Position numbers and translations under genes: made by a program. A model generated the notes under the pieces. That model searched no databases and was not told where the DNA came from. It saw only the letters and a program-made list of their open reading frames with translations. Positions 2,289-36,140 of a DNA stretch of 47,784 bases are shown here, piece by piece. Within the stretch, counting starts at the first letter, position 1. Each line of letters opens with the position of its first letter. Origin of the DNA: a virus (taxonomy: Duplodnaviria > Caudoviricetes); IMG/VR virus record IMGVR_UViG_3300049139_000048, positions 1-47,784 of that record, one strand, 5' to 3'.

Positions 2289-3965
2289 ATGCCGTGGCGC
2301 GGCCCCGAGTTCGAGGGCGAGCGCCCGACGTTGGGCTGGTACGTCCTCGACTGGATGATGCAGAACCTTGCACAGCCCGGCCGGGACGACGGCGAGCCGT
2401 TCGTGCCGACGCAAGAGCAAGCCGACTTCCTGGTCGCGTACTACGAGCTGCACCCGGTCACCGGGAAACGGGCCATTCACCGGGCGCTGCTCTCCCGCCC
2501 CCGCGGGTGGGGCAAGTCCCCGTTCGTCGGGGCGATCGCGCTCGCCGAGGCGTGCGCCGACGTCGTGCCCGACGGGTGGGACGCGTACGGCGAGCCGATC
2601 GGCCGGCCGTGGCACTCGATCCGCACGCCGCTCGTGCGCATCGCCGCGGTGACCGAGCAGCAGACCGACAACACGTGGACACCGTTGCTCGAAATGGCGC
2701 GCGGCCGGTCGCTGTCGACTGACTACGGCCTCGAAGTCCTCGACACCGTGATCTATCTGCCGCGCGGCGAGATCACCCCGATCACGTCGTCGGCCACGTC
2801 GGTCAAGGGCGACCCCGCGTGCTTCGCATCCCTCGACCAAACCGAGGAATGGAAAGAGAGCAACGGCGGGATCAAGCTCGCGAAGACGCTGCGGTTCAAC
2901 GCGACCAAACTCGGCGGCAGCATCATCGAGACGCCGAACGCTTTCACCCCCGGCGAGGGGTCCGTCGCGGAGAACTCGGCGGCCGACTATCAGGCGATCC
3001 TCGACGGCCGGTCACGGGCGCGCGGGATCCTGGTCGACCACCGCGAAGCGCCGCCCGAGACGGACATGACCGACGAGCGGTCGCTCGTCGCCGGGCTGCG
3101 GTACGCATACGGCGACAGCAGCGATCATCCCGACGGGTGTGTGCTGCACGACCCACCGTGCGCGCCCGGCTGGTCACCGATCGAGGGGATCACCGGCGCG
3201 TTCTGGGACACGTCGAACGAGCCGCAGGATCTACGCGCCGACTTCCTGAACCAGATCACGCACGCGTCGGATGCGTGGGTGACCGGGCCCGAGGTGCGCG
3301 CCACGTCCGACGTCGGCAAGCGGGTGGAGCCGGGCGAGCGGATCGTGCTCGGGTTCGACGGCAGCCGGAAACGGTCCCGCGGCGTGACGGATGCGACCGC
3401 GCTGATCGGCTGCCGGCTCAGCGACGGGCACCTGTTCGAGCTCGGTGTGTGGGAGCAGCCGAAGGGGTGGAAGCCGTCGACGGAGGATCCGAAAGAGGGC
3501 TGGCAGGTGCCGGTCGTCGAGGTCCTCGCGAAGGTGCACGAGGTGTTCGACACCTACGACGTGGTCGGCTGGTACGCCGACCCTGCCAAGTGGGAAAGCC
3601 ACGTGGCCGACTGGGAAGCGGCGTACGGTCCTCGGCTGCTCGTGAAGTCGACCCGGCAGCATCCAATCGAATGGTGGATGACCGGCGGCCGGTCGACGCT
3701 GATCGTCCGGGCGTTGGAGAAGTTTCACACCGCGCTCGTCGAGGGCGAGCTGACGCACGACGGATCGTCGGCGCTCGTACGGCACCTGCTCAACGCCCGG
3801 CGCCGCAAGACCCGCACCGGGATCCAGATCATGAAAGAGAACCCCGACAGCCCGAACAAGATCGACGGCGCGATCGCCGCGGTCCTCGCCTGGCAGTGCC
3901 GACTCGACGCGATCGCCGCAGGCATCGCCACCGAGGAAGAAGCCATGGGCGGGTTCACGTTCTGA
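2289..3965 (+). CDS. terL: Terminase large subunit
   Basis: Walker A-like SRPRGWGKSP; nuclease motifs LGFDGS..DATAL and KIDGAIA. Confidence 0.95.
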   Translation: MPWRGPEFEGERPTLGWYVLDWMMQNLAQPGRDDGEPFVPTQEQADFLVAYYELHPVTGKRAIHRALLSRPRGWGKSPFVGAIALAEACADVVPDGWDAYGEPIGRPWHSIRTPLVRIAAVTEQQTDNTWTPLLEMARGRSLSTDYGLEVLDTVIYLPRGEITPITSSATSVKGDPACFASLDQTEEWKESNGGIKLAKTLRFNATKLGGSIIETPNAFTPGEGSVAENSAADYQAILDGRSRARGILVDHREAPPETDMTDERSLVAGLRYAYGDSSDHPDGCVLHDPPCAPGWSPIEGITGAFWDTSNEPQDLRADFLNQITHASDAWVTGPEVRATSDVGKRVEPGERIVLGFDGSRKRSRGVTDATALIGCRLSDGHLFELGVWEQPKGWKPSTEDPKEGWQVPVVEVLAKVHEVFDTYDVVGWYADPAKWESHVADWEAAYGPRLLVKSTRQHPIEWWMTGGRSTLIVRALEKFHTALVEGELTHDGSSALVRHLLNARRRKTRTGIQIMKENPDSPNKIDGAIAAVLAWQCRLDAIAAGIATEEEAMGGFTF

Positions 3966-20147: not shown

Positions 20148-21101
20148 ATGGCCGGCGCCCTTTCTGCCGATCGGCTGCTCTCCGCGCTACGCGCTGAGGG
20201 TCTGCGGGTCGTCGAGTACCGCGACTGGCGCACTCACCGGCGCCCCTCATCTGCAGGGACGTTCGGCGAGATCAATGGGGTGATGATTCACCACACCGTG
20301 ACGTCGGGTACGACGTCGTCCGTCGAGCTCTGCTACAACGGGCACTCTTCGCTGCCCGGTCCGCTGTGTCACGGCGTCATCGCGAAGGACGGCACCGTCT
20401 ACCTGGTCAGCAACGGCCGGGCGAATCACGCCGGCCTCGGCGACGACGACGTGCTGCGCGCCGTACAGGACGAGTCATACGACCGCGACCGGCTGCTCGT
20501 GCCGAACGAAGCGAACACCGACGGCAACAGCCGGTTCTACGGGTTCGAGTGCATCAACCTCGGCAACGGAACCGACCCGTGGCCGGAGGCGCAGCGGGAC
20601 GCGATCGTCCGCGCGTCGGCCGCGATCCTCCGCGCATACGGCGGCCCCGCGCAGGGGTGGACCGCCCGCAGCGTGATCGGCCACAAGGAGTGGCAGCCCG
20701 GGAAGGTCGACCCGCGCACGGGCACGGGCGGTGTCGACGTGTCCCCGCCGGTGCTGCGCCGACTGATCGATGACCGTCTCGCCCATTCGGCGAGTTGGAA
20801 CCCCAACGCCCCGTCCGAGGAGGACGACATGACCCCCGAGCAGTCCAAGCAGCTCGCCGAACTGGCCGCCGCGGTGAAGCGGATAGAGGCCGGTCGCAGG
20901 GTCGACCCGTGGCTCTACAAGGGCGACGGCGAGCCGCGCGACATGCACCAGGTCGTCAAGGACATCGACCACGGAGTTCGGGCGTTCGAGCCTGCGGCCA
21001 TGACCGAGGAGCAGGTCGACCGGCTCGCCGCCGCGGTGGTCGAGCACCCGGCGCTCGCCGACGCCATCGCCGACAAGCTCGCCGCACGCCTCGCCAACTG
21101 A
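20148..21101 (+). CDS. Endolysin, N-acetylmuramoyl-L-alanine amidase (Amidase_2)
   Basis: VMIHHT, LPGPLCH, GRANHAG, YGFECIN, VIGHKEWQPGKVDP; GGAGG RBS before 20148. Confidence 0.92.
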   Translation: MAGALSADRLLSALRAEGLRVVEYRDWRTHRRPSSAGTFGEINGVMIHHTVTSGTTSSVELCYNGHSSLPGPLCHGVIAKDGTVYLVSNGRANHAGLGDDDVLRAVQDESYDRDRLLVPNEANTDGNSRFYGFECINLGNGTDPWPEAQRDAIVRASAAILRAYGGPAQGWTARSVIGHKEWQPGKVDPRTGTGGVDVSPPVLRRLIDDRLAHSASWNPNAPSEEDDMTPEQSKQLAELAAAVKRIEAGRRVDPWLYKGDGEPRDMHQVVKDIDHGVRAFEPAAMTEEQVDRLAAAVVEHPALADAIADKLAARLAN

Positions 21102-21837: not shown

Positions 21838-22532
21838 CGCACCGACGCCCCGGAATACTCGCCAGACAGTGGCGATCACTCGCCCTAACGGCGTTCCTGC
21901 TCGTTCTCGCGGGCGCGGTGCTGCTCGTGTGGCAGAGGGTCGACGCCGAGACCGCAGCACGCAAGGACGCGACCAATGAGGCGCGGCAGGCCATCGCCGA
22001 GGCCAACAAACGCGGTGACGCTGTCTCGACGCTCGCCGGTGACGTTCGAGTGCTGCGGGCACAGATCGAGGCCCGGGGCGATACGCCGGCCGCACCGGAT
22101 CCGGCGCGGGCGGTCGACGATCTGCCGGACCGGGCCGAGGTGCCGGTGCCGATCCCAGGACCGCAGGGACCGGCCGGTAAACCGGGCGAGCCGGGCAAGA
22201 CAGGCCCGTCCGGCACGCCCGGCGAGCCCGGTGAACCGGGAGCGGCCGGGGCCGATGGCGTGGACGGAAGGGACGGCGTGGACGGCAAGGACGGTGCCAC
22301 CGGCCCGGCCGGACCGCAGGGCGAGCGCGGAGAGCAGGGGCCCCGCGGTGAGCAGGGGCCGCCCGGGCCAGCTGGCCAGTCTTGCCCGGAGGGTTACTCG
22401 TGGCAGACCCCGAGCTACGACCCGGACGCGAAAGTCTGCCGGCGCGACGGCGCGCCGCCCCCGCCCGAGGACGACGACCCTTTGCTGCCTCTGTCCCTGG
22501 CGCTGGACCCGAACCGCCGCCAATACCCGTAA
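21834..22532 (+). CDS. Membrane-anchored collagen-like protein
   Basis: TM helix, coiled coil, long Gly-X-Y run, CPEGYSW...C C-terminus. Confidence 0.8.
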
Positions 22533-22552: not shown

Positions 22553-22753
22553 ATGTCTCAGACACCCGCCGAGCGCCCCGCACGGCCGCAGCCGGACCCC
22601 GGCTCGACCGACGTCGGCTCGCAGGTCGACCTCGGGTGGACGGATCCGGAGCCCGAGCCTGCCCCGGCCCCGCCGCCCGAGCCGCAGCCGGACCCCGAGC
22701 CCGAGCCCGAGACACCGGACGAGCCCGCCCCGGACGCGCCGTCTGGCCAGTAG
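22553..22753 (+). CDS. Small Pro/Glu/Asp-rich hypothetical protein
   Basis: AAGGAG upstream; ends just before a terminator. Confidence 0.5.
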   Translation: MSQTPAERPARPQPDPGSTDVGSQVDLGWTDPEPEPAPAPPPEPQPDPEPEPETPDEPAPDAPSGQ

Positions 22754-22760
22754 CACCACG

Positions 22761-22800
22761 AACGCCCCCTCGCGCCTACTGGCGCGAGGGGGCGTTTTCT
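22761..22800 (+). terminator. Intrinsic terminator ending the late operon
   Basis: AACGCCCCCTCGCGCC-TACT-GGCGCGAGGGGGCGTT followed by TTCT. Confidence 0.85.
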
Positions 22801-22816: not shown

Positions 22817-22839
22817 CTGTCAGCGCCGTGTGCCATAGT
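22817..22839 (+). promoter_or_regulatory. Promoter resembling the actinobacterial RecA-NDp/PafBC motif
   Basis: TGTCAG-N10-CATAGT versus consensus TGTCRG-N10-TANNNT; ends 7 nt before the first CRISPR-like repeat. Confidence 0.5.
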
Positions 22840-22846
22840 CGTCCCG

Positions 22847-23054
22847 TTGCTCCCCGCGAACGCGGGGATGGCCCCTGTGGGGACTGAAGCAGCATGCTCC
22901 CCGCCGCTGCGGGGGTGTACCGATGAGCCCTTACGTCAGTGCGCTGACTGTGGCCCGTCTCTCCGCGCAAGCGGAGGTTTCCCCGCCTATGCGGGGATGG
23001 CCCGAGTTTCAGGGGCGTGCAAGACCTGCTGCCCGCGCATGCGGGAATGAGAGA
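22847..23054 (+). CRISPR. Degenerate cas-less type I-E CRISPR-like mini-array (5 repeat units, 3 spacers of 18, 33 and 21 nt)
   Basis: R1 TTGCTCCCCGCGAACGCGGGGATGGCCCC 22847-22875; R2 ATGCTCCCCGCCGCTGCGGGGGTGTACCG 22894-22922; R3 CGTCTCTCCGCGCAAGCGGAGGTTTCCCC 22956-22984; R4 GGTTTCCCCGCCTATGCGGGGATGGCCCG 22976-23004; R5 CTGCTGCCCGCGCATGCGGGAATGAGAGA 23026-23054; all keep the I-E CCGC-N4-GCGG hairpin. Confidence 0.85.
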
Positions 23055-23082
23055 ACCCCCGCGCTTCCGGCGCGGGGGTTCT
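23052..23082. terminator. Probable bidirectional terminator
   Basis: AGAACCCCCGCGC-TTCCG-GCGCGGGGGTTCT, 13-bp perfect stem between the array and a convergent gene. Confidence 0.8.
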
Positions 23083-23105
23083 TCCGTGTACGCGTTGCTC
23101 CCGGA

Positions 23106-24455
23106 CTAAGCGCCGAGCACATCCATCAAATGATCGTCGAGGTCGGCGACCCAATCCTCACGCCGCCACGGCCGCAACTCCCGCCGCGCCCGCTTGAGTC
23201 GGATCGCCGGTACCCGGCCGCCCGTCGCCGCCGCCGCGGTGACGCACCCGTGCAGCAGCTCGGCGGCCGCCTGCGGCTCCCCCATCCGCACCCGGGCGAG
23301 TGCCTGATCGGTCGTCACGATCGCCCGCTGCACCTGCTCGCGCGGGCCGACGAGCGACGCCGCCGACCGGGCGAACCGGTCGTGCGCGACGGCCGGATCG
23401 CCGACGTACAGCTCGCACACGCCCTCGAACCCGGCGAGGTGCCCCGGCGAGAAGCTGCTCGTCGACGGGTCGCCGTCCGCACCGCTGTCCATGTCATACC
23501 AGGCAAGCCCGAGCGCAGCCTGCGCCTGCCGCTGCTCGTTCGCCCGCGCCGCGATCTCAGCCTGCAGCGCGTGCGCACGGGCCCGAACGGTCACGCTGCC
23601 GCCGGTCCTCGCGTCGCGCACCGCGGCGTCGACCAGGCGCCGCGCGTCCTCGAGGCCCTGCGTCGAGTACAGGGTGACGAGCGCGTGCGACATGTGGACC
23701 GTCGCCCGCCGCCACGGGTCGGCGAGCAGCCCGGCCTCGCGGGTCGCCTCGGCGTACAGCGCCCGCGACGCGGCATCATCCCGCGTCTCGAACGCGAGCC
23801 GGCCAGCGAGCGTACGGGCGGCGACCGCCGCGACCCGCAGCGACGGCAACACCGGCTCGGGCACCGGCCCGCCGAGCAGCTGCCGACATGCCTCGACGAC
23901 GGGGGCGAGCAGCAGCTGCAGCCGCACGAACGGCAGGCTGCCCACTTGCGCGTTGACGTCCGCGACAGCGGCAGCGAGCCCGGCGACGACCGGCTCGTCG
24001 ACACGGGACGGGTCGGCGACCGCCGCGGCGAGCCCGGCCTGCGTCGCCGGCGACAGCAGCGCGAGCAGCCCGCCGCCCTGCTCGGTCGCCGTGCGCAGCA
24101 GCAGCGTCCGCAGCTCGGCGAGCCGGTGCTCACTCTCGCCGAGGTGCCCGAGCGCGTCGAGCAGCTCGGCGAAGTCGGACCCGGCGCCGATCGACAGCGC
24201 GCCGGCCAGGGTGCGGGCGTAGAGGTGGGCGAGCAGCAGCTGATGCCGCTCGTCGGGCCGTGTCGGGGCCGCGGACTCCCATCGGGCGACGGAGCGCTGC
24301 AGCCCGGCGACCGAGGGGAGGCTGCCGCGTGGCTGCCCGAGGTCGTCGGCGATCGCGAGCAGGGCGCGGGCGGTGTCGGCGAGGGATAACCCCCGGCTCT
24401 TGCGCAGCCGCTTCATTGCGGCGGCGCCGGTGGTTCTGTCGTCCATGCCCCCCAT
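23106..24455 (-). CDS. XRE-family HTH regulator with long helical (TPR-like) C-terminal domain
   Basis: LRKSRGLSLAD...LQRSVARWE HTH; Ala-rich helical repeats; TTA codon at 24387-24389; start may be 24446. Confidence 0.8.
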   Translation of the reverse strand: MGGMDDRTTGAAAMKRLRKSRGLSLADTARALLAIADDLGQPRGSLPSVAGLQRSVARWESAAPTRPDERHQLLLAHLYARTLAGALSIGAGSDFAELLDALGHLGESEHRLAELRTLLLRTATEQGGGLLALLSPATQAGLAAAVADPSRVDEPVVAGLAAAVADVNAQVGSLPFVRLQLLLAPVVEACRQLLGGPVPEPVLPSLRVAAVAARTLAGRLAFETRDDAASRALYAEATREAGLLADPWRRATVHMSHALVTLYSTQGLEDARRLVDAAVRDARTGGSVTVRARAHALQAEIAARANEQRQAQAALGLAWYDMDSGADGDPSTSSFSPGHLAGFEGVCELYVGDPAVAHDRFARSAASLVGPREQVQRAIVTTDQALARVRMGEPQAAAELLHGCVTAAAATGGRVPAIRLKRARRELRPWRREDWVADLDDHLMDVLGA

Positions 24456-35346: not shown

Positions 35347-36140
35347 TGTGGCACCGCAACAGGCTGTGTGCGTTCGACCTTGAGACGACCGGGGTCGACG
35401 TCGAGCAGGACCGCATCGTGACCGCCGCAGTGATCGGCGTCGGCGGCGACCAGCCGACCGACGCGAGCGAGTGGCTCGCCGACCCCGGCATCGAGATTCC
35501 CGAAGGTGCGACGGCCGTGCACGGCATCACGACCGAGCACGCCCGCAAGCACGGTTCACCGGCCCGGCAGGTCGTCGATGAGATCGCCGCGGCGCTCGTC
35601 GCCGACTCCCGCAAGGGGGCGGTGATCGTCGGGCACAACGTGGCCTACGACCTGACGCTGCTCGACCGCGAGTGCAGGCGGCACGAGCTGCCGACGCTCG
35701 TCGACCGGGTCGGCGACCGGCCGCCGTACGTGATCGACACCCGTGTGCTCGACACGCACTGTTCGCCGTACCGCAAGCGGGTGTCGGAGACGCAGGGCCC
35801 ACGGCAGTTGATCACCCTCGCGCAGGTCTACGAGCTGCCGTGGAACGAGAGCGAAGCGCACGGCTGCGCGTATGACGCGCTCATGGCCGCGCGGATCGCG
35901 TACCGGATCGGGGTCCTCGCCCATATGCGGCGCTCCGACTGGCCCGAGTCGATCCGGTTCAGCAAGCGGCCCCGCTTCCACGAGCTGAAAGACCTCGATC
36001 TCGCGCAGCTGCACGAGCTGCAGGTGAAGCTCGCCGCCGAGCAGGCGGCCGGGCTGCAAGAGCACTTCCGCAAGACCAACCCCGACGCCGTCGTCGACGG
36101 CTCATGGCCGATGCGCCCGATGGAGGCCGACCGTGTCTGA
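35346..36140 (+). CDS. DnaQ-like DEDDh 3'-5' exonuclease
   Basis: FDLETTG, HGIT, GHNVAYDL, AHGCAYDA. Confidence 0.9.
   Translation: MWHRNRLCAFDLETTGVDVEQDRIVTAAVIGVGGDQPTDASEWLADPGIEIPEGATAVHGITTEHARKHGSPARQVVDEIAAALVADSRKGAVIVGHNVAYDLTLLDRECRRHELPTLVDRVGDRPPYVIDTRVLDTHCSPYRKRVSETQGPRQLITLAQVYELPWNESEAHGCAYDALMAARIAYRIGVLAHMRRSDWPESIRFSKRPRFHELKDLDLAQLHELQVKLAAEQAAGLQEHFRKTNPDAVVDGSWPMRPMEADRV

Follow-up and report, generated by a model that had tools for sequence, protein, structure and literature searches.

Arrays of the Cracr type are already known, and the one described here is of that kind. Their mechanism was shown with a Salmonella type I-E Cracr array (bioRxiv 10.1101/2024.10.29.618823, Liu et al.); as far as the text of that preprint describes them, the I-E example silences casA only and toxin silencing belongs to type I-F. 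On the host side, a 2022 review outlines a STAND-linked variant without Cas3 or array, for which a role in defence is predicted (PMC8730458). We analysed a degenerate type I-E array carried by a phage and consider it likely that this array is a set of multiplex guide mimics of the Cracr type, which would repress host defence genes via the Cascade of the host. All the features of a Cracr array that are testable by sequence were found in it.

The array and its genomic setting

The window, i.e. the whole stretch of DNA that was analysed, is an entire virus of 47,784 nt with about 70% G+C, and the phage is a temperate one of Streptomyces type. Head, tail, endolysin, integrase and repressor genes were recognized among the 59 ORFs (of 323 listed) that were scanned against PHROGs; no cas gene was found among these 59, in agreement with the sequence-only reading, which had seen none in the window. 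Since all the records matched by the array region in BLAST (9/9) are Streptomyces phages and Streptomyces CRISPR spacers match the window, we infer that Streptomyces is the host genus. On this mobile element, the array is not part of a cas locus; its neighbours are the lysis cassette on one side and, on the other, a convergent regulator gene of the NsdA family (23106-24455, minus strand). The 449-aa neighbour is not a constant companion of the array, one of three related loci having one at that place. A 66-codon Pro/Glu-rich ORF without an NCBIfam match is located at 22554-22753, directly before the hairpin that precedes the array.

The array itself consists of five hairpins and three spacers on the plus strand. 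R1 (22847-22875), a repeat of the ATG-handle class with 27 of 29 positions identical to a host repeat, is followed by the 18-nt guide S1 (22876-22893), by R2 (22894-22922, GTG-handle class, 25/29) and by the 33-nt guide S2 (22923-22955). R3 (22956-22976) is a 21-nt hairpin only, of the CTCC class (19/21), with neither a handle nor a spacer of its own; it is fused to R4 (22976-23004; hairpin and ATG-class handle, 22/29), the gap between them being -9, i.e. an overlap. The array ends with the 21-nt guide S3 (23005-23025) and the terminal 5-bp hairpin R5 (23026-23046), which has no handle-like tail. When compared with 77 host consensus repeats, the repeats form a mosaic of three host classes, and R1, R2 and R4 keep both the Cas6 hairpin and the handle. 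The spacer lengths and the array coordinates were as first read from the sequence; the five 29-nt units proposed at the same time, each with stem and handle, hold for the stems and not as complete units, R3 and R5 being handle-less and R5 having the shorter stem.

The 6-bp hairpin motif occurs four times on the plus strand of the window, every time in the array (22852, 22899, 22961 and 22981), whereas 200 Markov-resampled windows scanned for the same motif contained 0.25 copies on average and never more than 2. The array region folds with a z-score of -4.0, none of 200 shuffles being equally stable, and an Rfam search of the array gave no match. Self-folding of the spacers is not claimed as a design feature: 21.7% of shuffles equal S2 in stability (z-score of -0.70), the mean for 13 host guides is -0.07, and 26 long phage spacers lean structured (mean -0.75 vs -0.21, p = 0.001, with related sequences kept in). 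The best score for self-targeting inside the phage was 8.5 of 12, and none of these sites was credible.

Terminator-like hairpins are found on both sides of the array: a perfect one of 16 bp, on the plus strand 3' of the lysis cassette (22761-22796), which would insulate the array from late transcription, and one of 15 bp between the array and the regulator gene (23051-23083). An extended -10-like motif (22831-22839, plus strand), with a predicted start about 7 nt downstream, at R1, is read from the sequence as a putative promoter; the window has a single copy of it, and it also precedes 12 of 58 related arrays and is found in BC-cluster phages. A strict scan of the region called no promoter and no terminator. 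The flanking terminators and the promoter-like motif of the sequence-only reading are thus retained as hairpins and as a motif, not as promoter or terminator calls. In the BC-cluster phage Ididsumtinwong (L004, 1500-1700) the same extended -10 region comes after the lysis genes, and is followed by a different non-coding stretch ending in one degenerate repeat.

Cas6e cleaves at the hairpin base. The array is likely transcribed, and host Cas6e would cut the transcript into short guides, the predicted products of such cutting being 47, 62, 20 and 50 nt.

The same stretch could be what is left of a captured array, decayed or neutral, or else a part of a short coding gene. The repeats are indeed degenerate, a 67-codon ORF runs across 22847-23050, and one unit is missing relative to the close relative L001, which has the same array plus one extra 61-nt unit, with one more spacer, at the R3-R4 junction. 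This 61-nt indel, however, breaks any reading frame, and L001 has identical R1, S1, R2 and S3 despite different flanks. Repeats from three host classes, conserved seeds and the specific targets described below also argue against decay, and we regard both the remnant and the coding gene as highly improbable. The longer form, with its 61 extra nt, is also present in contigs of runs X2 and X4, perhaps not independently of L001. In contigs of X1, X3 and X4, the stretch corresponding to window 22960-23015 belongs to a second element having the same fused R3-R4 block and L010-type spacers; such blocks are therefore shared between phages.

Host loci matched by S1 and S3

Of 401 Streptomyces-genus genomes, 167 have a Cse1 match, and 124 host loci were fetched, 120 from among 150 listed Cse1 matches (68 further matches lay outside the list) and 4 found separately; the unpublished genome G135 was counted in genome tallies only. 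The genus-wide searches share one genome sample and therefore are not independent. Many cse1 matches (L106-L120, L124, L126, L142, L144 and L225) belong to long open frames (1,500-1,800 codons) in which cas3 is matched as well, which suggests, at the level of sequence, cas3-cse1 fusions.

S1 is a mimic of a host mini-guide present at caspase-STAND-linked I-E loci. It is identical to the 18-nt mini-guide of locus L185 at 17 of 18 positions, with no difference in the first 14 nt, and variants of this mini-guide occur in L187 and L188; none was detected in L195. In all four loci, S1 matches a site flanked by an AAC or AAG PAM; a -10-like hexamer precedes this site by 19-20 nt, the likely start of cse1 follows about 25 nt further on, and a divergent gene also has the site upstream of it. 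Over 12 informative positions, the match amounts to 12 for L185 and L188, 11 for L195 and 10.5 for L187. In each of these loci cas1 is absent from the fetched stretch and a frame of 1,504-1,608 aa with a Walker A motif is present, the L185 copy giving caspase, AAA and WD40 matches. The divergent gene corresponds to the Cas3 HD domain alone, the first His and the HD pair being replaced in 4/4 loci. Canonical arrays are found in L188; L185, L187 and L195 show none.

The targets of S1 are rare (3-4 of 401 genomes). A search of 401 whole genomes with the S1 PAM and seed pattern gave three matches, all at these sites, and a reversed control gave one; the pattern was written to include the known sites, and its informative part is the absence of others. 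L188 holds a perfect S1 site together with a 31/32 spacer (AAC) against the capsid gene of this phage (window 8315-8346, minus strand), which shows an ecological link between the phage and the S1 target. The effect of S1 would be to keep either the Cascade operon or the HD remnant of the STAND-linked system repressed. A second Cascade variant without cas1 (L105 and L217; also L211 and L222) adjoins small ORFs and a divergent gene of 1,300-1,400 aa, with HTH or AAA matches in L105 and L217; each of these two loci contains a mini-guide as well as an AAC-flanked site, and phage L064 carries a mimic.

S3 resembles host guides located 3' of a small membrane ORF in cas3-cse1 inserts, with identities of 15/20 in L145, 14/20 in L131 and 13/21 in L137, and is taken as their mimic. 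Its three best PAM-adjacent matches are in the same three loci, all with ATG handles, where the cas3-cse1 gap measures 547-683 nt, whereas most such loci have overlapping genes. On its reverse strand the insert shows a -10-like hexamer, an AAC PAM, the target, an ORF of 69-73 codons and a two-repeat mini-array. The target overlaps the purine-rich ribosome-binding stretch of the ORF, and the 20-21-nt spacer of the mini-array resembles both the target and S3. This succession of target, gene and guide inside a cas locus is the layout of CreTA and CRISIS modules. Taken by itself, the best S3 match has equals among the mocks (20 of 500) and needs G-U wobble pairs at positions 3-4; likewise, S3 shares at least 9 PAM-proximal bases with a host guide only via wobble or changes at positions 3-4 and 6.

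The small ORFs are 58-63% identical to each other, contain two hydrophobic segments and diverge in a coding-type manner (25-32 of 59 codons at third positions, 8-16 at first or second positions). They were found in 3 of 381 genomes, always in the cas3-cse1 insert, and a homologue check recovered 2 homologues among 12 candidates; one viral match was judged to be due to chance. The 69-73 aa two-helix protein had no Pfam match above the cut-off, and its best Atlas score of 0.85 is taken as a lead only. Judged from the layout only, this protein is likely a toxin, and upon dilution or inhibition of Cascade its gene would stay repressed through S3.

To place these matches among all possible ones, 71,797 PAM-adjacent sites were counted in the 124 cse1 loci, 3,044 of them (4%) in regulatory windows. 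The top three matches of S1 were all regulatory (mocks 1/500), as were those of S3 (mocks 0/500), and the top-three score was reached by 0/500 mocks for S1 and by 2/500 for S3; the three matches of each guide are orthologous sites and not independent, and the regulatory windows, like the genome-wide pattern of S1, were fixed after the first matches had been seen. Between guide and target, mismatches fall at positions 6 and 12 and pairing ends near position 14, a profile described for regulatory guides (bioRxiv 2023.03.03.530964). PAM-flanked partial matches at a cas or putative toxin promoter are present for S1 and S3, which are aimed at different I-E architectures; the match of S2 is not significant. 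The spacer search with PAM check proposed in the sequence-only reading accordingly gave PAM-adjacent host sites for two guides and no significant target for the third.

The PAM usage was evaluated from 2,364 host spacers compared with the phage loci, which gave 12 rows with at most 5 mismatches. AAG is found in 4/4 rows with a GTG handle, and the 8 rows with an ATG handle comprise 3 AAC, 1 AAT and 4 weaker ones with other triplets. AAC goes with ATG-handle and AAG with GTG-handle host spacers, and the PAM class therefore follows the handle class; AAG is also the published PAM of S. avermitilis (PMC4762764). With their ATG handles and mostly AAC targets, S1 and S3 are consistent with this pairing. 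Further protospacers in the window were located at about 3050-3081 (L201 spacer, 29/32, AAG), 20685-20716 (L197, 28/32, AAG), 36076-36107 (L214, 27/32, AAG) and 22125-22156 (L188, 28/32, GAT), and this phage group is targeted by canonical host spacers of several I-E classes.

By analogy with the Salmonella I-E Cracr and with CreR, guides of about 14 paired bases would let Cascade bind downstream of a promoter without licensing cleavage, and the bound Cascade would repress host defence genes at their start regions, presumably to the benefit of the phage. The possibility of guided, non-cutting repression, one branch of the sequence-only reading, is strengthened by the host counterparts of S1 and S3 and by their PAM-adjacent sites upstream of defence genes. 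All the products of the array would additionally compete for Cas subunits, and such competition could be the whole effect, the RNAs soaking up Cas6e, Cas7 or Cascade and the seed matches being relics of captured host mini-arrays. Racrs act in this way, two of the I-E type being reported as active (PMC10651486), competition for Cas is reported for Cracrs as well (bioRxiv 10.1101/2024.10.29.618823), and the R3-R4 fusion would release a spacer-less hairpin of 20 nt. In contrast, seed mutation abolished the effect in the I-E case published in the latter preprint, and sequestration alone would derepress a guide-controlled toxin. Seeds moreover follow the host targets and are conserved across unrelated phages, in contrast to the drifting distal halves. 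A pure Racr is by definition a solitary repeat without target, which does not apply to an array with five hairpins and three spacers, two of them with targets. A decoy function only is unlikely in our opinion, and repression by guide mimics is the reading retained here.

S2 and related arrays in other phages

No significant target was found for S2. Its best match is flanked by AAG and lies in L197, between cas3 and cse1, with a score that 456 of 500 mocks equalled; the mini-guide of L197 itself resembles the extra spacer of L001, and the 28/32 spacer against this phage cited above belongs to the array of the same locus. An exact search for the PAM and seed pattern of S2 found it in 0 of 391 genomes, and S2 shares fewer than 9 PAM-proximal bases with any host CreR/CreA spacer compared. 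The handle and seed pattern of S2 was matched in 5 of 401 genomes, four of these matches not being repeats and one being L197; among viral contigs it was found in L001 only, and in metagenomes there were three matches, all of them due to chance, in coding DNA without hairpins or cas genes.

With its full length of 33 nt, S2 had been thought able to target a competing element, and the guides of the array, above all this one, could direct the Cascade-Cas3 of the host at competing phages or plasmids. BLAST searches of 50,697 phage and 72,556 plasmid records with S2, S1 and S3 being too short for such a comparison, gave no support to this idea, however, the best E-values being 3-4, with none of the matches in a Streptomyces element and no near-full protospacer. 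Furthermore, S1 and S3 have host targets, and S2 changes between close relatives in the pattern of a seed-only guide, positions 6, 16, 18, 19, 29 and 33 being altered in L001 and positions 1-5 and 7-15 kept. A role in competition between mobile elements appears quite improbable from these data, and within the guide-mimic reading S2 probably serves as a third guide, meant for a GTG-handle system outside the sample.

Two repeats with a short spacer were found at 63 viral loci, many of which are similar degenerate arrays with recurring spacer families. S1 recurs in L001, L046 and prophage L088, where it varies at positions 6 and 10, and the S3 family has 15 distinct members, partly selected by pattern. 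Among the 22 matches of the S3-pattern scan of genome contigs, seven are mini-arrays (L071, L072, L076, L079, L082, L084 and L086), to which L088 is added, one is a canonical array (L087) and 13 are without array. In a set of 118 spacers, taken from 55 arrays with no more than 9 units and a G+C of 64% or higher, the best match was regulatory in 27.2 cases (23%) vs 63.5 of 1,180 mocks (5.4%); this set is enriched for S3-family arrays because seven prophage loci were found by the S3 pattern. At the level of sequence, the logic of guide mimicry recurs in other actinophage arrays.

Tight fusions of hairpins, 19-21 nt apart, were observed at nine loci, i.e. about eight distinct arrays; a CCCC-class hairpin is joined to a CTCC-class one in 7/9, the other 2/9 being of another composition. 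ATG and GTG handles are mixed in 12 of 58 arrays. By such a fusion, one guide may end in the hairpin of one system and the next begin with the handle of another, and slippage between hairpins is an equally likely cause.

Several of these arrays deserve mention on their own. The cultured Streptomyces phage Cumberbatch (L005, 1500-1800; MT451982.1) carries an unannotated degenerate I-E array of six hairpins and offers a ready experimental system. In genome G001, a spacer of the prophage array L076 closely resembles the mini-guide of the I-E locus of its own host (L104), where an AAG-flanked site matches it at 11 of 12 positions. Mini-guides of 14 nt were also seen in the cas3-cse1 gaps of L159, L167, L171, L172, L173 and L175, and a family of 14-nt spacers in many phage arrays mirrors them. 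Since several further families of phage spacers have counterparts at other host loci, phage mini-arrays can serve as a finder for hidden regulatory guides of the host.

Possible defence layers and comparison with known systems

A bolder proposal, which we put forward only tentatively, is that one RNA disarms two undescribed defence layers of Streptomyces, a guard-type STAND-linked I-E system and a CreTA whose toxin would be a new membrane protein, the first protein-toxin case in type I-E, the fused hairpins of the RNA passing neighbouring guides to different Cas6e classes. As a guard, the STAND-linked Cascade would hold a single self-targeting guide, and the loss of repression, for example upon an anti-CRISPR attack, would unleash a caspase-STAND death pathway; the dead Cas3 HD remnant would then be a decoy or an adaptor. 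The STAND-linked I-E variant, which has been described as having neither a guide nor a known function, is now given a candidate for its guide, a target site and a mimic in phages, and it can therefore be argued that this variant matters in phage defence, which promoter reporters could test. The array further suggests a candidate for a new family of toxins that guard I-E CRISPR. These observations are relevant to phage contamination of Streptomyces fermentations and to the use of native Cascade for multiplex repression.

In the literature searched, to which the supplementary tables of the Cracr preprint (Actinomycetota included) did not belong, neither these spacer families nor the guide of the STAND variant nor an I-E protein-toxin module were found, and two small supplement files of the mini-array preprint held no match to these families. 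Streptomyces is mentioned neither in the main text of bioRxiv 2024.10.29.618823 nor in bioRxiv 2023.03.03.530964 and 2023.03.10.532045, and the CreTA/CrePA/CRISIS texts (bioRxiv 2024.01.05.574328; 2024.12.27.630466) mention neither I-E nor Streptomyces.

In its parts, the system resembles several described ones. As in the autoregulation of casA by CreR, in the form described in bioRxiv 2023.03.10.532045 and 2023.03.03.530964, the host counterpart of S1 is directed at the Cascade operon of its own locus, where its target site is flanked by a PAM; unlike the I-E systems of CreR described there, the locus is cas1-less and contains a caspase-AAA-WD40 gene and a Cas3 HD remnant without catalytic residues. 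It is also like the STAND-NTPase-associated derived I-E systems of Streptomyces outlined in PMC8730458 and PMC12642450, Cascade adjoining a STAND NTPase and no adaptation module being present in the fetched stretches. Compared with the variant as the review presents it, the loci differ by a single self-targeting mini-guide in 3/4, a divergent HD remnant in 4/4 and arrays in one of them (L188), and by the mimicry of the guide by phages. The target module of S3 is like the CRISIS modules described in bioRxiv 2024.01.05.574328 and 2024.12.27.630466, having a PAM-flanked target, a gene and a repeat-derived guide inside a cas locus. With the Racrs, as described in PMC10651486, the phage array shares viral repeat mimics, an own promoter (putative here) and the absence of cas genes; those Racrs are solitary repeats that act by sequestration, whereas this is a multi-unit array with targeting seeds. 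Compared with the Cracr arrays described in the text of bioRxiv 10.1101/2024.10.29.618823, a single I-E array here carries one guide against a STAND-linked variant and another against a toxin-like ORF, and combines three host repeat classes with a fused double hairpin.
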